In this document: positions 42,722 through 55,978 of the stretch, piece by piece | How positions within the stretch are numbered: position 1 is the first letter of the stretch | Layout: every line of letters begins with the position of its first letter | NCBI GenBank assembly: GCA_963668175.1 | Contig: OY764159.1 | Location: 480,001 to 544,000, forward strand | Direction: 5' to 3' | From: Syntrophales bacterium | Lineage (GTDB): Bacteria; Desulfobacterota; Syntrophia; Syntrophales; PHBD01 | Length of the DNA: 64,000 bases | Translations under genes and position numbers: made by a program | The notes under the pieces: model-generated | The model's database searches: none | The model's input: the letters and a program-made list of their open reading frames with translations, nothing else | What the model was told of the DNA's origin: nothing

Positions 42722-42798
42722 GCCCCCGTAGCTCAGTAGGATAGAGCAACGGATTCCTAATCCGTGTGCCGGGCGTTCGAATCGCCCCGGGGGCACCA
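42722..42798 (+). tRNA. tRNA-Arg(CCT)
   Basis: Acceptor GCCCCCG/CGGGGGC, D arm GCTC/GAGC, anticodon arm ACGGA-TTCCTAA-TCCGT, T arm GGGCG-TTCGAAT-CGCCC, 3' ACCA. Confidence 0.97.
42753..42798 (+). repeat. att core, left copy (3' 46 nt of tRNA-Arg)
   Basis: Identical to 55603-55648. Confidence 0.95.
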
Positions 42799-42846
42799 AT
42801 TATATCAATAAGTTATACGAACACTCCTTACTTCTTCGGCTGCTTC

Positions 42847-43057: not shown

Positions 43058-44674
43058 ATGGCAGATGCAGCAATTAAACCATCGGAATCGCTCACGCTAA
43101 TAGAATCAGATAAACCGAAAAAAGCGAAAGTTTTTGAGGAAATAAAGGCTCGTCAAACAGATGAATTGGTAATCGCTTTCTGCGGACCTCTCGGTAGTGG
43201 CGTCAGCACTGTGGCTAAAGAATTTGAAAAGAAAATTCGATCATATACCTATGGAACTCATTATTTAAAAGTTAGCAATTTGATTCGTCAGCATATCGAC
43301 TTGGTTCCTGGACATCCACCTATTCCTACAAGTGATAATCCTGCTGAGGTAATTGAGGCTCTACAAGATGCCGGCAATGCCCTAAGAAGAAAATATGGCA
43401 ATGATATTTTATCGCAGTTCGCGATTAATGAGATTGCTATAAAACGAGAAGACCTTGAAAAATCAGAAAATGCTAAAAAAGTAGAGGGGATAGAAAAAGC
43501 GGCAGAAGTTAAAGAAGAAGACTCAACTGTGAAATCAAAACCGCGACGGCATGTGACAGTCATTGACAGCATAAAACATCCCGAGGAAGTTGGACTGCTC
43601 AAAGCTGTTTATGGTAACATGTTTTATCTATTCGCGATATTATGCCCCGAACAGATTCGAAAACACCGCCTAAACGAACATAAGGACATTCCTGATGGTC
43701 AAGAAGTTGCTTTGATGAAAAGAGATAAGTCCGAATCGGAAGGCTTTGGACAGCAGTTACTAGACACCCTCCACTATGCTGATTTCTATATTCGTAACGC
43801 CGATGTGAATGTCACTTTACTGCAAGACAGCGTTAAGCGTTATATCGATCTAATACTTGGAGACCAATTTATCACGCCTTCCACTGATGAATACGCCATG
43901 TATTGCGCACAGTCGGCAGCGCTGAAATCATCTTGCCTTTCACGGCAGGTTGGTGCTGCGATTATGAGTGAAGACGGGGAATTAATATCAACGGGATGTA
44001 ATGACGTTCCGAAATGTGGTGGCGGATATTATTCCGAAAGAGACAAGGAAAATGATGGCAGATGCATGAAGTTATATGGTCAGCAATGCAAAAACCAAGA
44101 ATTCAAGGATAAAATTATTCAAGCTATCGAAAATGCTCTTTTGCCTTATCTCAGCGATGTCACAAAAAGAACGGAAGCTATGGATAAAATTAAAGAGATC
44201 GAAAGACTGAAAAATATTTTAGAATTCTCAAGGTCTGTCCACGCGGAAATGGACGCTATAGTCAACATCGCCCGTCTTGGCAACGCATCCTTAAGAAACG
44301 CGGCTCTCTATTGTACGACTTTTCCATGTCATCATTGTTCGCGCCATATAGTTGCATCTGGAATAACAAAAGTCTACTACATAGAACCTTACGAAAAAAG
44401 CTTGGCTCGACAATTACATAACGATGCTATTGATTTTGATCCTAAAGTTAATGGCTCCCCTGGAAATAAAGTCATTTTTATCCCCTTTGAGGGGGTCGCC
44501 CCGAGACAGTATATGAATCTTTTCAAAGCAGGTGAAAGAAAGGTAGGTGGTAAAAAAGTCGAACAAGATTTGACTCAATCCAAACCACGGGTTGTACAAC
44601 TTCTCGACACACACGTTGATTATGAGACAAAAGTTGTCAAACATGTTAAATTAATTATACAAAATAAGACTTGA
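43058..44674 (+). CDS. anti-phage dCTP/dCMP deaminase with N-terminal P-loop kinase (AvcD-like)
   Basis: GPLGSGVST P-loop, IDSIKHPEE, SSCLSRQVGA, HAEMDA and TTFPCHHC (HAE...PCxxC Zn site), FEGVAPR. Confidence 0.9.
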   Translation: MADAAIKPSESLTLIESDKPKKAKVFEEIKARQTDELVIAFCGPLGSGVSTVAKEFEKKIRSYTYGTHYLKVSNLIRQHIDLVPGHPPIPTSDNPAEVIEALQDAGNALRRKYGNDILSQFAINEIAIKREDLEKSENAKKVEGIEKAAEVKEEDSTVKSKPRRHVTVIDSIKHPEEVGLLKAVYGNMFYLFAILCPEQIRKHRLNEHKDIPDGQEVALMKRDKSESEGFGQQLLDTLHYADFYIRNADVNVTLLQDSVKRYIDLILGDQFITPSTDEYAMYCAQSAALKSSCLSRQVGAAIMSEDGELISTGCNDVPKCGGGYYSERDKENDGRCMKLYGQQCKNQEFKDKIIQAIENALLPYLSDVTKRTEAMDKIKEIERLKNILEFSRSVHAEMDAIVNIARLGNASLRNAALYCTTFPCHHCSRHIVASGITKVYYIEPYEKSLARQLHNDAIDFDPKVNGSPGNKVIFIPFEGVAPRQYMNLFKAGERKVGGKKVEQDLTQSKPRVVQLLDTHVDYETKVVKHVKLIIQNKT

Positions 44675-45265: not shown

Positions 45266-46114
45266 CTATTTCACCGGACACTGTTCTAACTTATTTTGAT
45301 GTCTCCTATACTCCCTGGGCGACATCATTTTCAATCCCTTGTGCGGATGGTTTTCATTGTAGTCTAAGAACCATCCGGGCAGTTGCTTCATGACCGTTTC
45401 GGCATCAGTCAGGATATTCAGATGAATATAATCCCTCTTGAAGGTCTTGACAAAGGATTCGGCCATTCCGTTCGATTCCGGGCTATAGAACGGGGTCGTG
45501 CAAACCTCAAGCCCCATCATCTGCCCAAAGCTTTTCGTTTCCCTGGCGGTGTACGCAGGACCATTATCGCTCAGCCACTGGATTCTGTGAGGCAGCCGAT
45601 TGATCATACCGAAACGGGCCTCAATGGCTTCCGCCATCAAGTCCCTGACCATGTCGCCGGATACGCCCCCTGTCGTGGCTACATAACTCATGATTTCCCT
45701 GTCGCAACAATCCATGCTGAACGCTACCCGGAGACGGTCCCCATTCCAGCAGGCAATCTCAAACGCATCGGAACACCAACGAAGATCGCTCCGTCTCGTC
45801 GTGACCTTGCCCTCGTGAAGCCTTGCCGGCCTACCCGTATGCCGCTGAAGAAGCAGATTGTGCATCTTCATGAGACGATAAATCCGTTTGGGGTTAACTC
45901 CCGGATGCCCCTGACGTTCCAGAAACCTGTTGATTCTTGCCGTTACTCTCCGATAGCCGTAACTGGGACGATTATCAATAACCTGCCTGATCAGAAGAAG
46001 ATATCTGCCATCGTCGCCTCTCCTGTAATGGCGGCTTCTCGAATCGGCTTCCTTCCCTTGCCTTTCGTACTGCCGGGAACGGGAAACGTCCAGCGTATCG
46101 ACAACCGTCTTCAT
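45266..46114 (-). CDS. IS3-family transposase OrfB (DDE)
   Basis: YGYRRV, WCSD, LSDNGPAY, SNGMAESFVKTFKRDY. Confidence 0.95.
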   Translation of the reverse strand: MKTVVDTLDVSRSRQYERQGKEADSRSRHYRRGDDGRYLLLIRQVIDNRPSYGYRRVTARINRFLERQGHPGVNPKRIYRLMKMHNLLLQRHTGRPARLHEGKVTTRRSDLRWCSDAFEIACWNGDRLRVAFSMDCCDREIMSYVATTGGVSGDMVRDLMAEAIEARFGMINRLPHRIQWLSDNGPAYTARETKSFGQMMGLEVCTTPFYSPESNGMAESFVKTFKRDYIHLNILTDAETVMKQLPGWFLDYNENHPHKGLKMMSPREYRRHQNKLEQCPVK

Positions 46115-46488
46115 CGGGAATCGTCCTCCGGCAACAACGGCAACCGCGAGATCAGTTTTTTTTCACGGGCAATCCGGACAGCCTCTCTTAATATCTCCAC
46201 CTCCATTGTCTTTTTGCCCAGAAGACGCTCCAACTCCCGGATCTGCTTCTTCAGTTCTCTGGCTTCCGATGCAGGAACGACGCCTTCATCTGCACCAACC
46301 GCCGACAGAGCCCCTTCTTCGGCAAGCCTGCGCCAGTGGAACAACTGGTTCGGATGGATGTCATACTTCCGGGCTACAGCCGAGATGCTCATTCCCGGCT
46401 GCTCCGCCTCCCGCACCATCGACTTCTTCTCGGCAGCCGACCAGCGACGTCGCCTCTGTACACCGACGATCACTTCTACAGGAACCAT
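46111..46488 (-). CDS. IS3-family transposase OrfA (HTH)
   Basis: RRRWSAAEK, VARKYDIHPNQLFHWRR, ELERLLGKKTME; A8 run (46156-46163) is the candidate -1 frameshift site. Confidence 0.93.
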   Translation of the reverse strand: MVPVEVIVGVQRRRRWSAAEKKSMVREAEQPGMSISAVARKYDIHPNQLFHWRRLAEEGALSAVGADEGVVPASEARELKKQIRELERLLGKKTMEVEILREAVRIAREKKLISRLPLLPEDDSR

Positions 46489-47036
46489 AAACACCTTCTT
46501 TCTGGTTGTAGTAATATCTCTATATCTATTCCTACAACTTATTTCCAGATTCAAAGTGTCCGGTTCAATTGGGGGCTACTTCACTTTTTCGGCGAAGAAA
46601 CACTGTTGGATCAGGACCAGCTCTATCATTCCATCCCTGTCGTTCGCGACGGAAGCCTTAATCCAGTTGTCATAGGCATCTTGAGATACGCATAAGGCGA
46701 TCAGCTTGGGTTTGACAGTGCCTTCGGTTCCGACCATCGGCGCTGCTTGGGCAGTCGAGCAACAAATGAGAAGACATAATGCTGTGATGATTTTGTACAT
46801 GATAAGCTCCTTTCTGTATGGGGTGTTGTTATCCGCCTTCTCTGTTTCAAGGAAGATTCGTCGGCTTTCAGGATTTTGGGGATTGATGTTTGTGCGGGTG
46901 TTGAATTTAGGAACGGGTGTTTTTCGCCCATAATATCCGCGCGAAGGGCTCTGTCGTGCGGCAAGGTCATTTCTGAGGAAGCCACCCGGGGGTGGGTACC
47001 AGTCACTGGGGCAATCGTTCATCCGTTCCGCTTACG

Positions 47037-47723
47037 TTAGTTCCAGAGCCCTTTTATCTGTGATTGAATCGCTTCGTCCGTAACATCAGCGTAAACAAGA
47101 GTTGATTGTATCGACATATGCCGGAGCTGCTTCTGTACTGCCCGGAGGTCCTTCTCTTTGGAATACAGTTCGACGGCGTAGCTATGGCGCAGGGCATGAA
47201 CAGATTTTCCTTTCTCGTATAGATCAAGCTCCCGCAGATATTTTTTGACGATCTGCTGAATAGCTTGGGGCGTCCATGCCCCTCGCTGCCCGACAAAGAG
47301 ATGATCGTCATCGCCTACGGGCTCGCCCTGACTGATTTTCCACGCTTTAAACGCTTTAAAATGACGTTTAAGCGCTTCCGTAATAACGACATGCCCCGAT
47401 ATAGCCCCCTTACCTTTACGGACATGTATTTTGCTGTCGGCGTAGCCGATCTTTAAATCCCCGCAGCGGAGATCGGCTGCTTCGGATACCCGGAGACCCG
47501 CCGATGTCAATAAGTCGATCACCATCCATTCACGGATCGCCGTGACCTTGTTCTTCTGCACGTCAAGCTCTGCCTCTTCCCTTGCTCGTCGTCGGAGCAT
47601 CTTGATCTGCTGTGCGCTAAAGTACTTGATGCCGTCGACGCTTCGCCCTTGTTTGACTCGCGCCCTGCTTCTCGTTGTGACAGCAGGGAATCGAACGATA
47701 CTTGCCGTCTGATCCATGTTCAT
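47037..47723 (-). CDS. small tyrosine recombinase (essentially catalytic domain only; resolvase/invertase-like)
   Basis: GLRVSE, KGKG, HALRH, QLRH, TLVYA; 228 aa. Confidence 0.9.
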   Translation of the reverse strand: MNMDQTASIVRFPAVTTRSRARVKQGRSVDGIKYFSAQQIKMLRRRAREEAELDVQKNKVTAIREWMVIDLLTSAGLRVSEAADLRCGDLKIGYADSKIHVRKGKGAISGHVVITEALKRHFKAFKAWKISQGEPVGDDDHLFVGQRGAWTPQAIQQIVKKYLRELDLYEKGKSVHALRHSYAVELYSKEKDLRAVQKQLRHMSIQSTLVYADVTDEAIQSQIKGLWN

Positions 47724-47946: not shown

Positions 47947-47978
47947 AGCGGGAGGGTCAATATATCAACCCTCCCGCT
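47947..47978 (-). terminator. hairpin downstream of the DUF2188 gene
   Basis: AGCGGGAGGGT-N10-ACCCTCCCGCT. Confidence 0.65.
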
Positions 47979-47987
47979 TGTTGAAGT

Positions 47988-48218
47988 TTACCCTTTAGGG
48001 GGATATGGATCGTGACCGTGACTATCTCGCCAAGCTATTTTGCCGTCTTTGTTATGAACGATCATTTCGGTTTCCTGATGTTGGCTAATTTCTCGTGCAC
48101 GATCAACGGCATCCTGTTTATGATCAAAATGCCCAGAAGAGCGTTCCGATCCGCCTTTTCTTATATCCCAACCACCCTTGTCAGAGTTTGGCACAACGTG
48201 ATGAGAACCTTTTCCCAT
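47988..48218 (-). CDS. DUF2188-domain protein
   Basis: HHVVPN..GGWDIRKGGSERSS.HFD.KQDAVDRAREIS....E.IVHNKDGKI..RDSHG.DP.PPKG; GGAGG RBS before ATG 48218. Confidence 0.88.
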   Translation of the reverse strand: MGKGSHHVVPNSDKGGWDIRKGGSERSSGHFDHKQDAVDRAREISQHQETEMIVHNKDGKIAWRDSHGHDPYPPKG

Positions 48219-48310
48219 GGTGAATCCTCCGTTAGTTATTTGTGTCCCCTCTTTTGGAACCAGGCAGGGGACAAACCTGGGCCATGAGATCATGGCATAT
48301 TTTCAGCTAA

Positions 48311-48460
48311 TCACTTCTCGTAAACCGGAATTTTCCATGCCTTCAAACCATGATCCCTTGCGTAATCTCGGCGTCCATCTCTGCGGGTAACCCATATTCG
48401 ATAAATGAAGTATAGGATCCGGCGTCGCCTACTGTAATGATCGCTATGATCTCGATCCAT
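48311..48460 (-). CDS. 49-aa Arg/aromatic-rich small protein (below the ORF-track cutoff)
   Basis: MDRDHSDHYSRRRRILYFIYRIWVTRRDGRRDYARDHGLKAWKIPVYEK*; AAGG upstream; co-oriented between the ImmA and DUF2188 genes. Confidence 0.6.
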   Translation of the reverse strand: MDRDHSDHYSRRRRILYFIYRIWVTRRDGRRDYARDHGLKAWKIPVYEK

Positions 48461-48497
48461 GGAGACCTTGCCTTTCTCTGGAAAAGTAAAATATTGC

Positions 48498-48670
48498 TTG
48501 ACAAATTCGGCCCCGGTGATCTACTGAGAGACGGCTAAAAATAAATAAGGGTCGGCGGTCCGTGTCTCTGACACGATCAGAGAATTTCCCACACCGAAGA
48601 GGCTTCCAGAACCTTTGAATGTGGTCCGCTGATGACGAAAAATAAGGGGTCGGCAAACCCCTTATTTTTT
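48498..48670 (+). ncRNA. candidate structured small RNA with its own promoter and a bidirectional terminator
   Basis: TTGACA (48498-503)-16-TCTACT with TG; internal hairpins; terminator AAAAATAAGGGGT/ACCCCTTATTTTT (48638-48670). Confidence 0.4.
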
Positions 48671-49253
48671 ATCGTAATTTTAACGTCTTAAGTCGTGTTC
48701 TCACAAAAGCAGGATTTACATCGAACATCTCCGCGAAATCCTTATCAGAAAACCCCCTTTCATATCCTTTAACGACTAAATGCCTTGGCATAAGACATGA
48801 TCGTGCGAATTCCCAAGCCTGCCACTCAGGATCTTGGTACGTTTTAATCTGACTTTTCTCCACTCGATAAAGAATGTTCGTTTCCTCTTTCGATACAGCT
48901 CGGAAATAACTGAGAATTGGCACATGATGAATGCAATGAAATGATTCATGAGCAACCGTTGTTCTAAACCGCCGTAAGCCAGGTTTATGAGTTGCGTCGC
49001 TCAACGTTTTATCAACTATACTGATACGATTCACTGAGTCAGTATAACCGATAATCCCTGCCCCCAGATTCGAGAGATCAGTGTAGCCAGTCCTGACCTC
49101 ATGTTGTTCCGGGATGATGCACTCATAGAAGTATTCAATATCAACCGGTTCTTTTCCCTCCAATGCTCGCGGCTGAATCTCTTTGAGGACATCGATCACC
49201 ATTTTTTCTATATCGCGTCTGCGTAATCCCGGAACAACGGTAACCTTTTTCAT
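48669..49253 (-). CDS. ImmA/IrrE family Zn metallopeptidase
   Basis: RFRTTVAHESFH (HExxH), EWQAWEFARSCLMP, C-terminal FDVNPAFVRTRL. Confidence 0.9.
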   Translation of the reverse strand: MKKVTVVPGLRRRDIEKMVIDVLKEIQPRALEGKEPVDIEYFYECIIPEQHEVRTGYTDLSNLGAGIIGYTDSVNRISIVDKTLSDATHKPGLRRFRTTVAHESFHCIHHVPILSYFRAVSKEETNILYRVEKSQIKTYQDPEWQAWEFARSCLMPRHLVVKGYERGFSDKDFAEMFDVNPAFVRTRLKTLKLR

Positions 49254-49624
49254 TCTCGTTTCCTCGTGAGCGTTTCAAGAGCAGTCGTAAATGCTTTCTT
49301 CAATATCGCGTCATCAGAGGTATCTTCAACGGCGCGGCAAAATCCCCATGCTAAATCAGGATCAGAATTGTAAATCTTATCGATGATTGGCGAATTTTTT
49401 CTCATACGTTCCATCTGAGCCGATTCCTTTATCTTTTCGGAATCCAATCCTAAAACACTTGCCAGATTTTTTAGAATCTCCTCATTTTTCGGTGGTAATC
49501 GTCTTCCTGATTCGATCTCTGACCAAAAGCTTGGCTGCCCTCCTATCTCTTTACTGAGTTGCCGTAATGTCATTCCTTTTTGACGTCTCGCTTTTGCCAT
49601 GAGTTCACCGAAATTAATCTTCAT
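49250..49624 (-). CDS. XRE-family HTH repressor
   Basis: FGELMAKARRQKGMTLRQLSKEIG...SEIESGRRLPP; stop overlaps the peptidase start (ATGA). Confidence 0.9.
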   Translation of the reverse strand: MKINFGELMAKARRQKGMTLRQLSKEIGGQPSFWSEIESGRRLPPKNEEILKNLASVLGLDSEKIKESAQMERMRKNSPIIDKIYNSDPDLAWGFCRAVEDTSDDAILKKAFTTALETLTRKRE

Positions 49625-49659
49625 GAACTGACCTCCCTTCGATTTCGGTTTAGTTATTC

Positions 49660-49735
49660 ATTCACCTCCTTTGTGAATATCCTTATATTCCTTTTGAAAT
49701 TTCTTGTCAAGAAAAAATTCACATCGAATGTGAAC
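49660..49735. promoter_or_regulatory. two TTCAC-N7-GTGAA operators flanking the xre promoter
   Basis: ATTCAC-ctccttt-GTGAAT (49660-78) and ATTCAC-atcgaat-GTGAAC (49717-35); minus-strand TTGACA at 49710-49705. Confidence 0.6.
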
Positions 49736-51909: not shown

Positions 51910-52956
51910 TCATATACTTTTGCGGCAGATTCTAGCCCACTCAGAATCAGCCTGCATCATCACTTCCATCAGCGCCGCTTTGAAGCCCTCGAATCTTGCC
52001 ATGTCCTTAACATACTGATTCAAACCCTTGATGAACCCTCTGTGATTGATATGCTCTAGTTGAAAACAATCACCGTTTCCGTAGTTATCAGTCGCTCGAT
52101 AATCCTTATGGAAAACTGGAAGTTCCGTTGACCCCTCAAAGCATTTGAAGTGATAAATATCCTTATTCATTTCGTAAAAGCTTATACCCGTGATAAGATC
52201 GCCGATCCGACTGATTCCGTGTTTTCGGAGCCTATGTCTGGGAGCAGAATACTCTAGTCTGACTCTATCGATATCCTTGATGTCCCAATAATCGCCTGTC
52301 CTGTTGCCGTCTGAGCCTCTTTCATAAATTTTCGTATCCCCGACTCGATATACAGTATTCATCCTATTGCAATTCCCTGTCATTGTCAGTTGACCGCCGT
52401 ATATTTGTGCCCCCCGTCGATAAGGAATGTAGAGACATTTTTTCAACGCCCAGAACAGATTTTCGGCACATCGGGAGTTCCATGCGGGAAGATCAATCGT
52501 GTAGTCGATTGATGACACGCCGGCTTTCGGAAGGTCTTTCCTGATTTTAATCAACAACTCCTTCAGATTCGCCAAGGAACAGCTCTCTTTCGTATGTATT
52601 TCAATCCAGAATGGAGCTTGACGACCAATCGGGAACGTAAAGATGTAGATGTCGCAGGCGGGGAGGTGTTTAATCCATCTTTCTTGATAGTAATCCATTC
52701 TCCTTTGTTGCGGTGGCACCTTGTCGATGAAATAAGGATCAAACAACCTATGAATCGTCCCACGATCTCTGGCAATGTTCTGGCTTCCTACAGTCAATAC
52801 GATCTTGTGGATGAACGCATGTATCATTAACGGTGAATATGGGTCTTCCCCGTCGAGAGATTCGTTCTTTATCCCTTCCAAGCAGTGGCTGACGTATTGC
52901 AATGCCGTTGTTTCCTTTAACCCCCGACTCATTCCTACCCGATCAACCGTCATCAT
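51910..52956 (-). CDS. putative Rep_trans-like (rolling-circle) replication initiator/relaxase
   Basis: VSSIDYTIDLP, TVY..GDTKIYERG and RVRLEY resemble Rep_trans motifs (RxDxAxD, xIYxK, RxE); follows the Xis-like gene. Confidence 0.5.
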   Translation of the reverse strand: MMTVDRVGMSRGLKETTALQYVSHCLEGIKNESLDGEDPYSPLMIHAFIHKIVLTVGSQNIARDRGTIHRLFDPYFIDKVPPQQRRMDYYQERWIKHLPACDIYIFTFPIGRQAPFWIEIHTKESCSLANLKELLIKIRKDLPKAGVSSIDYTIDLPAWNSRCAENLFWALKKCLYIPYRRGAQIYGGQLTMTGNCNRMNTVYRVGDTKIYERGSDGNRTGDYWDIKDIDRVRLEYSAPRHRLRKHGISRIGDLITGISFYEMNKDIYHFKCFEGSTELPVFHKDYRATDNYGNGDCFQLEHINHRGFIKGLNQYVKDMARFEGFKAALMEVMMQADSEWARICRKSI

Positions 52957-53036: not shown

Positions 53037-53258
53037 CTATTCCTTCGGGAAAGAATCCACAGTCAATACAGGATTCTGTTTCAGCCATGCCTCGAAGTCT
53101 TCTACCATGTATCTTATGCCCCCACGACTGTTGGTACGGTAAAATCTGGGTCCTTGTTTGCGATATCGCATCGTGCAAAGTTGCCCGACGGTGAATCCAT
53201 AAAGAGCTGCTGCCTGACGAGGTGTTATCGCTTTTGGTGTTATTTTTTCGTTATTCAT
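53037..53258 (-). CDS. excisionase/AlpA-like HTH protein
   Basis: ITPRQAAALYGFTVGQLCTMRYRKQGPRFY...IRYMVEDFEAWL. Confidence 0.85.
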   Translation of the reverse strand: MNNEKITPKAITPRQAAALYGFTVGQLCTMRYRKQGPRFYRTNSRGGIRYMVEDFEAWLKQNPVLTVDSFPKE

Positions 53259-53337: not shown

Positions 53338-54204
53338 CTAAACTTCGAAATCGCCAGGTTGATATGGGCCAGGGAATGTGAATCGTTCGACATTTTTTAT
53401 GATCTTTTCCGCTCGCTTCACATCAGGACTAGGTTTTTTGCGATTGCCGCTCGCATTCGGCTCTCGTATGAACTGATCATATGCCTCTAGATATCTTGCA
53501 AGTTCATCTTCGTGTATTCTATTGATCGAGGCGGAGCTTCGACTCCTGTACGCCCCCTTCGTCTCCAAGAACTGCCTTCTTTCTTTTCTGATACTGTTGA
53601 GTTCCTTGCCGACTTGTTTGCCCGTCAGCTTGCGAAGGGGTACAGCCACGAAGACATATTCATTGTCTGACGTGATCAGTTCCAAGATTTCTTTCGAAGT
53701 GGGACATCGATTGTCTTTAAGCTTTCTAAATCTGCGCAACGAAGCCTCCAATAAGGGTAAGGCCTGAACGGCTTCTGGATCGCTTAAATCGATCATAAAA
53801 TCATCTCGCAGCCTGCTGCCATTTTCGCTCCACCATTTTTCGAATCCATCTTCATCTTCGTGGACATCGCCAAAGAATTCCCAACTATCCAAAAGTTCCC
53901 ATGGGTCAGAATAATCTCGCCCTTCTACCGATTCGTGTTTTTCTTTCCATTTGTCACGATAAAGCTCTTCAACCCTATCAAATATACGGGCGTCTCTACT
54001 AAGCTCTGTGATTTTTTTCAAACGGTATAAGTCTCTACCGGAAAGCGCTTTGCCCTTATCAGTTGTGGTAGATTCGGTGACGGCAATTTCTTCCTCTGCT
54101 TGCTGTATGGTTTCGCAGAATTCCCTATATCGTGTGCTCCGCTTAAGATATTTCCACCACAACTCGTATATTGTTTTCGGCTCTATGGGTTTGCTTCTGG
54201 GCAT
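53338..54204 (-). CDS. hypothetical protein, possible transcriptional regulator of the element
   Basis: N-terminal WWKYLKRSTRY; lies between integrase and xis. Confidence 0.6.
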   Translation of the reverse strand: MPRSKPIEPKTIYELWWKYLKRSTRYREFCETIQQAEEEIAVTESTTTDKGKALSGRDLYRLKKITELSRDARIFDRVEELYRDKWKEKHESVEGRDYSDPWELLDSWEFFGDVHEDEDGFEKWWSENGSRLRDDFMIDLSDPEAVQALPLLEASLRRFRKLKDNRCPTSKEILELITSDNEYVFVAVPLRKLTGKQVGKELNSIRKERRQFLETKGAYRSRSSASINRIHEDELARYLEAYDQFIREPNASGNRKKPSPDVKRAEKIIKNVERFTFPGPYQPGDFEV

Positions 54205-54248: not shown

Positions 54249-55403
54249 TTATGATTGCTCGGCTTGAGCGTTGGCATTTGTATCTCGTTTTTCTTTGAAG
54301 ATATTCTCAAGCTTCGCAGTCGCCTGCCTTTTTTGATCGGGCATCAGGTGTGCATAGCGAGCAGTCATGGCAAGTGTTTTGTGCCCCAGAAGTTCCTTAA
54401 TCGTTAAAATCGTTTCGCCTTGTGATGCGAGCCAGGAGGCGAATGTGTGCCTTAAACTGTGGAATGTAATGATGTGGCGAGGGTCTTCTATCCCGTCGTT
54501 GAATTTCAGCTTGTTAACTGTTCTGGCATATGCGTTCGATACCCGCTGGATTTTACCCCCATGGCTCCTAGCTTTGAAAACATATTCGTCAGGCAAATCA
54601 GGTTTTCTGGCAAGAAGCGTCTCTTTAACAGCTTCTGTCATATAGGCTTTGCGGCTTTCCTTGTTTTTCGGGTCGGCAATGTTGATTATACTGTTTTCGA
54701 AGTTCAAATCCTGCCCCTTGAGATTGAAAATCTCTCCCGCCCTCAATCCACAATGCAGGCTGATCAATGCCATATCATGCACCGTTTTTGAGGTCTTTTC
54801 TAATTCCGTCAACAAAGTATCTGCCTCATCATATGATAGGAATCGATCCCTCTGATTTTTGATAACGGGCATCTTCACCCCTTTGATCGGGTTATCGCCT
54901 TTATACAAACCCCAGGTGATTGCTTTGTTTACTATCTGGCGGAACACGACAAGGCAATGCTTTATACTGGCGGGAGACATTTCTCTCTTGGTCAGATCAG
55001 TTTTCAATCTCTCAAGATCGAACGACGAAATATCGCTGATTCTCTTTTCGCCAAACAGAGGGGCAAGGTGTTTTCGGTATCTACTTTCATCATCCCGTCC
55101 ATACCTCGCCCTGTTGTCTTTCGCCCATTCAATATACGCCTGCGCGGCATCTTTGAAGTACGGGGCTTTGGGTTTTTGCTTAGGTAATTGTTCGCCATGT
55201 CTCAGGCTCCTTATGCGTTCAGCCCGGAGCTGAGATGCAACCCTGACTGAATACCCCTCACTCAACCAGCCGATCTTTTCCCATATTTTCTTCCTGTCCT
55301 TCTTGTAAGTGACGTAGAAACACACGTCGGGCTTGCCAAGAAAATTCCTATGCTCGGATTTTCTTTCGTAGACACCTGGTTGTTTTCGGGTTATATTTCT
55401 CAT
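54249..55403 (-). CDS. int: tyrosine integrase of the element
   Basis: GLRAGE, PKNK, HSLRH, LLGH, TARYAH; N-terminal arm-binding-like region; adjacent to att. Confidence 0.96.
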   Translation of the reverse strand: MRNITRKQPGVYERKSEHRNFLGKPDVCFYVTYKKDRKKIWEKIGWLSEGYSVRVASQLRAERIRSLRHGEQLPKQKPKAPYFKDAAQAYIEWAKDNRARYGRDDESRYRKHLAPLFGEKRISDISSFDLERLKTDLTKREMSPASIKHCLVVFRQIVNKAITWGLYKGDNPIKGVKMPVIKNQRDRFLSYDEADTLLTELEKTSKTVHDMALISLHCGLRAGEIFNLKGQDLNFENSIINIADPKNKESRKAYMTEAVKETLLARKPDLPDEYVFKARSHGGKIQRVSNAYARTVNKLKFNDGIEDPRHIITFHSLRHTFASWLASQGETILTIKELLGHKTLAMTARYAHLMPDQKRQATAKLENIFKEKRDTNANAQAEQS

Positions 55404-55474: not shown

Positions 55475-55602
55475 TATACGTCATTTATTGTGATTCCTTG
55501 AGAATAGGATCGTCTATCGTTAACATGTTAAGTTGTTTATATTATAAGATATGTGATGTCAAGCGATTTTCTGTGACGAGGATGATTTGCCGTATTAATC
55601 GT

Positions 55603-55648
55603 ATTCCTAATCCGTGTGCCGGGCGTTCGAATCGCCCCGGGGGCACCA
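55603..55648 (+). repeat. att core, right copy (duplicated tRNA-Arg 3' end)
   Basis: ATTCCTAATCCGTGTGCCGGGCGTTCGAATCGCCCCGGGGGCACCA, identical to 42753-42798. Confidence 0.95.
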
Positions 55649-55978
55649 TTTCAATCATCACATCATGCTCAACCATGATTTTTCTTTTCCCCTTATCCTT
55701 ATTTTTTACAAAAATGCGCAGACGCTGACTTTCAAAAGTCTCTTTGAAAGTCGCTCATAATGTAACTCCTCGCGAAATTGTCGTTGCTCCGGAAACCTTT
55801 CAGACAAGGTGCGTTGCACCCCCATTAACCCCTATGTATCTGAATAGAAAGGCAAACATCTTTTCAATGCGGGACAAGGTTAAGTGAATCGATTTTCCTC
55901 TATTCTTTTTCCCCAAAAAAAAGTATATATATACTATTCATCGTTACATACAGTACTGATCTCGTTTGAGCTCCATAC

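Follow-up and report, generated by a model that had tools for sequence, protein, structure and literature searches.

A basic microprotein behind an XRE/ImmA-like pair and a predicted antisense RNA: a possible double lock on an integrative element of a Syntrophales bacterium

Pairs of an XRE-family repressor and an ImmA/IrrE-type peptidase rank among the most frequent regulators of prophages and defence islands; many of these pairs have no apparent target. CapP, the peptidase of the CapH/CapP pair, binds single-stranded DNA (ssDNA) through its GAF domain (bioRxiv 10.64898/2026.05.16.725639), and Lau et al. (bioRxiv 10.1101/2022.04.27.489752), citing Burroughs and Aravind 2020 for these operons, described CapH/CapP-like pairs beside DUF2188 and hypothetical proteins, each pair being encoded divergently from its operon. 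COG2856-Xre pairs were linked to toxins (Makarova et al. 2009, PMC2701414), and DUF2188 was likened to a minimal HicB antitoxin domain (PMC13621843). Among type I loci, the antisense RNA of Ldr/Rdl covers the 5' leader and not the Shine-Dalgarno (SD) sequence, and tisB, symE and dinQ combine an SOS/DNA-damage repressor with an antisense RNA (PMC4147584). The Bub preprint (10.1101/2024.11.21.623953) and a TIR preprint served as context only. Here we analysed a stretch of 64,000 nucleotides (nt) from a Syntrophales bacterium (the window; GenBank GCA_963668175.1, contig OY764159.1, positions 480,001 to 544,000), in which an XRE gene and an ImmA-like peptidase gene on an integrated element are followed by a structured gap, a gene for a basic microprotein of 49 amino acids (aa) and a DUF2188 gene.

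On balance we favour the reading that this microprotein is locked twice, by the repressor-protease pair and then by an antisense RNA on the mRNA leader. An earlier note on this DNA had described four co-oriented genes, with xre translationally coupled to the gene of an HExxH peptidase, a structured gap of about 200 nt and a hairpin after DUF2188, and this outline was borne out. All four open reading frames (ORFs) lie on the minus strand where they had been placed, the first two overlap by 4 nt (ATGA), the gap (48461-48668) measures 208 nt with a minus strand that folds beyond shuffles (z -2.1), and the terminal hairpin of the operon is present at 47947-47978 (minus strand). The order xre-peptidase-gap-peptide-DUF2188 is conserved, being found in 7 of the 80 metagenome loci fetched with the peptidase and in locus L002. 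The promoter and terminator that we describe on the opposite strand of the gap were absent from the earlier note.

The first lock would be the regulator pair. The xre gene (49250..49624, minus strand) encodes a 124-aa repressor whose helix-turn-helix (HTH) domain scores above the cut-offs of HTH_19/HTH_31, and the next gene (48669..49253, minus strand) a 194-aa zinc peptidase. Residues H102, E103, H106 and E143 of the peptidase were invariant across 38 of 38 aligned sequences, and except for C107 no conserved cysteine lies between HExxH and E143. The earlier assignment to the ImmA family held for fold and motifs, the structural model (predicted local distance difference test 94) having CapP (7T5T, Foldseek E-value 4e-5) and IrrE as its nearest folds, but the score against Pfam M78 was 19.9 bits, under the cut-off of 22. 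The C-terminal end of the model is an HTH-like helical part. An XRE HTH gene thus adjoins an HExxH..E zinc peptidase of IrrE/CapP fold, as in ImmR/ImmA-type pairs, and the peptidase, which is not CapP, would work like ImmA. The predicted xre promoter (TTGACA-17-TATAAG, 49682..49710, minus strand) is flanked by two operator-like palindromes, one (TTCAC-N7-GTGAA, 49718..49734) upstream of the -35 box and the other (49661..49677) directly downstream of the -10 box, and relatives carry a similar layout. Six perfect palindrome sites were found in the genome, the sole pair within 100 nt being the two at the xre promoter, and the same palindrome flanks the xre promoter in 5 of the 9 relatives examined. 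When one mismatch was allowed, no operator match was obtained near the integrase or the HTH_17 gene of the element; one imperfect match lies at 46580-46596. Operator repeats of the ImmR/ImmA type are thus predicted at this promoter, and from the palindromes we infer that xre is probably autorepressed.

The second lock is predicted on the strand opposite the gap. The 110 distinct peptide matches were reduced to 89 loci by dropping those with less than 260 nt upstream, with an N present or with a leader more than 70% identical. Within the 100 nt that precede the peptide start, a sigma-70-type promoter was detected on the opposite strand in 57 of the 89 loci; the sense strand had one in 11, shuffles gave 8.1, and of 168 control ORFs 18 had one; its -35 box lies mostly 26-33 nt before the peptide start codon, and its spacer is mostly 17 nt. 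An opposite-strand terminator was called in 76 of the 89 (sense 25, shuffles 7.5), and promoter and terminator occurred together in 51 loci, 29 of which give 77-84 nt. An antisense RNA of about 80-150 nt is predicted from these signals across the family. In the window the predicted promoter is TTGACA-18-TACTGA (48498..48527, plus strand; -35 at 48498-48503), in which the T at -7 is absent, and a terminator hairpin with U-tracts both ways (48638..48670) overlaps the peptidase stop codon and would form the 3' end of an antisense RNA of about 139 nt (48534..48672, plus strand; start inferred). This segment folds on the plus strand beyond shuffles (z -3.9, 0 of 200 shuffles). Among 50 tRNA genes of the host, 22 have a -35 box plus a TA site, with the -7 T in 5 of the 22 and an 18-nt spacer in 4; since these promoter-like sites mostly lack the -7 T (17 of 22), the antisense promoter of the window fits its host. 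Absence of this T we take to be a feature of CarD-dependent promoters. In 48 peptidase loci outside the peptide set the antisense promoter signal was weaker but present (12 vs 4.1), a bin that wrongly takes in at least two peptide carriers (L016, L076).

On the sense strand, the leader is predicted to hide the SD sequence. In the OFF state the SD (48471-48476) would pair with an anti-SD segment (48476-48486) in a hairpin (48471..48486, minus strand). Upstream lies a three-way junction (48553..48631, minus strand; P1 48626-31/48553-58, P2 48620-25/48588-93, P3 48577-83/48565-71), and the apical loop of P2 (48603..48611, minus strand) is complementary to the anti-SD over 9 base pairs (bp), 7 of them Watson-Crick, which makes it both the predicted ON pairing and the antisense target. 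SD accessibility was 0.32 in the peptide loci (n=89) and 0.49 in control ORFs (n=164). For the 52 loci that have a consensus promoter nearby, the SD-pairing bases fall chiefly within the spacer of that promoter and not in the antisense RNA. Pairing of this anti-SD segment with the part of the leader covered by the RNA beat shuffles in 46 of 52 and swapped leaders in 45 of 52; folding near the promoter, compared by strand, gave 20 vs 23 of the 52, with no clear preference. Within an 11-member close family, 18 of the 24 junction pairs showed compensatory change, a count reached by 0 of 500 shuffles and with much smaller values in slid controls, the structure having been derived from the same alignment on which covariation was scored. 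The helix between P2 loop and anti-SD had 7.4 Watson-Crick pairs in cognate combination vs 5.1, and the cognate was better in 11 of 12 close loci (locus L219 among the 12), its sequences differing between subgroups; a second short pairing, of the junction with the promoter spacer, holds in 10 of 12. Both the loop and the spacer pairings had first been spotted by eye in the alignment later used for testing. Because the upstream loop covaries with the anti-SD, it could free the SD, and in the window the loop:anti-SD duplex of 9 bp was calculated at -10.8 kcal/mol vs -4.5 kcal/mol for the SD hairpin. The switch-like RNA of the earlier note is thus retained in its SD hairpin, covarying junction and loop, but its role as a plain output gives way to a translation switch with a predicted antisense RNA. 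Hammerhead, hepatitis delta virus-like and cyclic di-GMP readings were dropped for misfit of the junction order and lack of an Rfam match. In Rfam the best E of the window was about 1 with none in the gap, and 20 loci gave tRNAs only.

The same leader could also work in cis only, as a translation switch that senses a protein (for example the bound microprotein) or a ligand, with the opposite-strand signals as by-products or minor contributors. The covarying pairings fall on bases inside the antisense promoter, and so the sense strand must fold; the sense strand shows no variation at the junction bases, the peptide has a basic and aromatic character, and the -10 box in the window is off consensus, all of which suits such a switch. 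However, a -35 and -10 box at fixed spacing and a strand-specific U-tract occur far above chance, and sense folding alone would not keep these, while the leader sequence is wholly different between clades in which the peptide is conserved. We regard a switch acting in cis only as improbable.

The gene behind the leader encodes the microprotein (48311..48460, minus strand), which has a net charge of +7, no family name and a predicted beta-beta-beta-alpha-beta fold. The 49-aa ORF pointed out in the earlier note proved to be a real gene with widespread homologues and under purifying selection: the ratio of nonsynonymous to synonymous polymorphism (pN/pS) was 0.27 (32 codons, 10 close loci), and third positions vary most. 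A four-sequence profile search gave 159 clusters (50% identity) at E<=0.001, at least 3 of the 150 listed being spurious long proteins. Named hosts are Syntrophales, Brocadia, Acidobacteriaceae, Bacillota and a cyanobacterium, and the family is also found on Agrobacterium and Alteromonas plasmids. The 91 aligned peptides have a median length of 45 and a median charge of +6, and in none of the 91 was a membrane segment detected (19-aa hydropathy window >1.6). The model of the peptide is a confident small beta-rich fold; searches gave no match of the window peptide in Pfam, NCBIfam, PHROGs or PADLOC, a best E of 0.09 in the PDB profile search, none at E<=0.001 with Foldseek and none at Z>=2 with VIA-align. 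Atlas matches were hypothetical-protein clusters only, and relatives of the peptide match PHROGs of unknown function, weakly. Homology between the peptide and DUF2188 was considered and rejected (probability 2%). By a loose criterion (a profile match, or an HExxH ORF of any kind whose end is no more than 900 nt away), an HExxH ORF lies upstream of the peptide in 75 of the 89 non-redundant loci, a figure inflated because some loci were fetched with the peptidase, and an ImmA-like/HExxH gene in 36 of the 50 loci fetched with the peptide. A Zymomonas plasmid (L214:2230-2680) carries a separate, unannotated homologue of the peptide. It is flanked by a type I restriction cluster and a TIR-domain gene and has a hairpin upstream; ImmA is not annotated there.

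This linkage bears on what the microprotein does. As the main alternative to an effector role, it may be a feedback regulator that binds the peptidase, XRE or the recombination machinery and so amplifies or resets the switch, the RNA lock being unchanged. Such feedback would suit the tight linkage with ImmA-like genes across phyla, the short peptidases devoid of the sensing domain of CapP, and the operator pair found at this promoter only, from which it follows that the operon is the whole visible regulon. Yet the peptide persists where a distant subfamily replaces the peptidase (L002), 14 of the 50 peptide-fetched loci have no upstream HExxH ORF, and unrelated small proteins and an RNase H occupy the same position. 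On these grounds we would not expect feedback to be the role, with about the same disbelief as for the cis-only switch.

If the microprotein is indeed locked twice, the two layers would act in series. XRE would bind the palindromes and shut its own operon until it is cleaved by the peptidase, which DNA damage or phage infection would switch on. A terminating ribosome can mask a terminator; at the peptidase stop codon it would mask the two-way terminator, and the transcript would run on. In the free mRNA, the P2 loop would pair with the anti-SD and the SD would open, while the antisense RNA, which has a mirror loop matching P2, would block this pairing, so that leaky mRNA would stay silent until derepression out-titrates the antisense RNA. 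Two serial locks would set a threshold, and the microprotein would be expected on strong induction only. Once released, the basic microprotein would bind nucleic acid, and DUF2188 would be an optional passenger. Harmful products are typically the ones kept under such double control, and a defence gene lies on the same element, which weakly favours a growth-arrest or anti-phage role; that the microprotein is such an effector, most likely a nucleic-acid-binding one, is the weakest step and is put forward tentatively, at less than an even chance.

Several observations weigh against the double lock. Transcripts of both strands are predicted from sequence signals, and a search of the available RNA runs gave none that covers the locus; of two contig runs of unrecorded kind, which do not bear on expression, one is near-identical to this DNA and may be its source, and the other covers scattered pieces. 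The p-values given in this work are overstated, because many loci are related prophages and not independent. The antisense promoter of the window fails an E. coli consensus scan, as do those of 32 of the 89 loci. For the window alone the loop:anti-SD duplex was not significant (shuffle p 0.11, rank 5 of 12), and its second long-range pairing has only 3 bp. Blocking the RNA-covered part in equilibrium folding brought no drop in access to the SD (0.34 vs 0.32 at p 0.39 and n=52; for the window, 0.30 vs 0.32), and the switch would therefore have to be kinetic or pseudoknotted. In 32 of 65 loci no more than 12 nt separate the start of the hairpin from the peptidase stop, and a sense terminator was called in 10 of these 32 and in 4 of the 33 distant loci, a weak link between stop-proximal hairpin and sense U-tract (p 0.08). 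The peptidase has no GAF domain of the kind through which CapP senses ssDNA, and the peptides are without the membrane helix usual in type I toxins. Locus L219, which was out of sample and is the one member that the RNA model picked up independently, has the junction and the SD hairpin but did not favour its cognate pair, and its RNA device stands without xre, peptidase or peptide.

In L219 (1500-2190, E 2e-17) the terminator, three-way junction, antisense -35 and SD hairpin lie between gyrA and an RNase H gene, which suggests that the RNA device may be a portable lock placed before different genes. An RNA model run over 150 genomes gave 12 matches, of which 3 were strong (the own genome, G016 and G536); the 9 weak ones were without xre, peptidase, peptide and DUF2188, and three of them lie beside tRNA-like genes.

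The small RNA could instead be the product itself, acting in trans or neutralising the microprotein in a type III-like manner, and its own promoter and terminator, its strong fold and a C-rich loop that is anti-SD-like in several relatives are in keeping with this. No other match longer than 18 nt was found when the genome was searched for trans targets, no sequence motif is common to the clades, and full complementarity to the leader offers a simpler use. We consider an RNA product quite unlikely. It is likewise quite unlikely that regulator pair, RNA with peptide, and DUF2188 are cassettes independent of one another that form a mosaic with no joint function. DUF2188, RNA device and regulator pair are each found without the others, which suits a mosaic; against it, distant lineages share the peptidase-RNA-peptide order, and the hairpin is 12 nt or less from the peptidase stop in 32 of 65 loci.

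The DUF2188 gene (47988..48218, minus strand) was confirmed at the place given by the earlier note (70.5 bits vs a cut-off of 22), but its start is most likely 48218, with its own SD, which gives 76 aa and not 101 aa; the PADLOC model spans residues 26-101 of the 101-aa ORF. It also matches the PADLOC PDC-S16 models (E 7e-32), for which no paper text was found in the literature searched. DUF2188, which the earlier note had included in the module, is not a fixed part of it. It follows the peptide in 6 of the 89 loci and in 0 of the 50 peptide-fetched loci, although two carriers fetched with the peptide (L084, L085) had been counted together with L002 and L012, which they duplicate. Of 301 genomes from the host's order, 15 carried DUF2188; at the 15 DUF2188 loci other than the window and G016 (one unrecovered, two incomplete) the peptide was present in none and xre-peptidase directly upstream in 2. 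Judged from this distribution, DUF2188 is an interchangeable, facultative cargo. Other tiny proteins replace it, namely a 39-aa basic family and YjzC-like proteins; this second unnamed 39-aa microprotein follows the peptide at L146:2688-2807 and in about ten more prophage loci and has no Pfam match. Small basic ORFs of 26-60 aa replace the peptide itself after the peptidase in L004, L010, L014, L023, L041, L062, L082, L105 and L120, some resembling a diverged peptide and others unrelated or Cys-rich. A hairpin between peptide and DUF2188 (48222-48270, minus strand), with a similar loop in L002, L008, L009 and L012, is possibly a second RNA element. That the RNA gates larger defence operons was considered and dropped, as L074, L078, L079 and L080, whose next genes presumably encode ubiquitin-like or TIR proteins, were without an antisense promoter; these four have a sense promoter-like site after the peptidase, with a palindrome common to L078-L080, and are a different, RNA-free wiring of the same regulator.

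The operon lies on an element of 12.85 kilobases with a G+C content of 0.45 vs 0.56 for the genome, bounded by attachment (att) repeats at a tRNA-Arg(CCT) gene (42722..42798, plus strand), the 3' part of which is the left att copy; the right copy (55600..55657, plus strand) is 93% identical over 58 nt to 42750-42807. Its tyrosine integrase is encoded at 54249..55403 (minus strand). The anti-phage deaminase that the earlier note had placed on the element is indeed within the same att repeats, as a dCTP deaminase (43058..44674, plus strand) above the NF041025 cut-off (469.8 vs 400 bits) and assigned to dCTPase by PADLOC. Also on the element are another tyrosine recombinase, a short one of 228 aa (47037-47723), an IS3-like insertion (45266-46554), and unassigned ORFs of 348 aa (51910-52956) and 288 aa (53338-54204) on either side of a weak HTH_17 (excisionase-like) gene (53037-53258), which together may be its replication or excision module. 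Part of this DNA was shared by 1 of 60 related genomes, and searches of the locus with single sequences gave no match.

The regulator pair and its link with DUF2188 are of known kinds, while the RNA device and the peptide family appear undescribed; the claim of an undescribed module thus stands for a compact and conserved unit but has to yield where Lau et al. (2022) already report CapH/CapP-like pairs beside DUF2188 and hypothetical proteins. The RNA device is absent from Rfam and the protein family from Pfam, NCBIfam and PDB, and no description of an RNA or microprotein at this position was found in the literature searched, most subscription journals and preprint supplements being outside its scope. 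For a sizeable group of ImmA/IrrE-XRE pairs, the output is suggested to be an overlooked microprotein with a hidden antisense RNA. A broader generalisation is possible but doubtful: prophages and integrative elements may widely carry an undescribed class of module that gates a new family of basic, non-membrane microproteins, effectors of abortive phage defence or growth arrest, jointly by an ImmR/ImmA switch and an antisense RNA of plasmid style, a new type I toxin-antitoxin class tied to protease damage sensing. If so, the RNA lock would be portable, and genes such as those of DUF2188 or RNase H could equally come under it.

In comparison with ImmR/ImmA (ICEBs1), CapH/CapP and DdrO/IrrE, the locus likewise has an XRE gene and an HExxH..E peptidase gene, co-translated and on an integrated element, but here an RNA layer follows the pair. 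With 194 aa the peptidase is about 90 residues shorter than the 288-aa CapP and has neither the C-terminal GAF domain nor the cysteine-switch loop, and the pair is co-oriented with its output, not divergent from the controlled operon. The CapH/CapP and DUF2188 operons of Lau et al. bring the same three protein families together with a proposed defence role, but their orientation differs, the available part of that preprint describes no RNA device or microprotein family, and DUF2188 is optional here. P22 immI (arc-sar-ant) resembles the locus in having repressor genes and an antisense RNA that controls a downstream gene in a phage moron (PMC2629481); unlike here, its target is an antirepressor, there is no peptidase, and no sequence similarity was detected (no Rfam match). 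Type I loci such as Ldr/Rdl, TisB/IstR-1, SymE/SymR and DinQ/AgrB have an antisense RNA over the leader (Ldr/Rdl) or a damage repressor combined with an antisense RNA (tisB, symE, dinQ), features that are predicted here too. The candidate antisense gene over the small-protein mRNA has strong promoter and terminator signals across the family; the peptide is basic, beta-rich and without a membrane helix, none of the 91 being the small hydrophobic membrane toxin of the usual case, and the repressor belongs to a local XRE/ImmA pair and is not LexA. The closest RNA counterpart is Inc/repZ of plasmid ColIb-P9, with its hairpin-masked SD and an upstream loop that pairs beside the SD to open it; its antisense RNA, the gene of which lies about 100 bp upstream, is a competitor for that loop (PMC4705826). 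The window has no replication initiator, origin or Rfam plasmid antisense match, and no leader-peptide ORF turned up, although no search was aimed at one; the controlled gene is a microprotein gene under a protease switch. Pairing of loop and anti-SD in competition with the SD hairpin is nevertheless predicted from covariation as in ColIb-P9, in 11 of 12 close loci though weakly for the window alone, and if the double lock is true, a mechanism of plasmid copy-number control would extend to the control of stress and defence.

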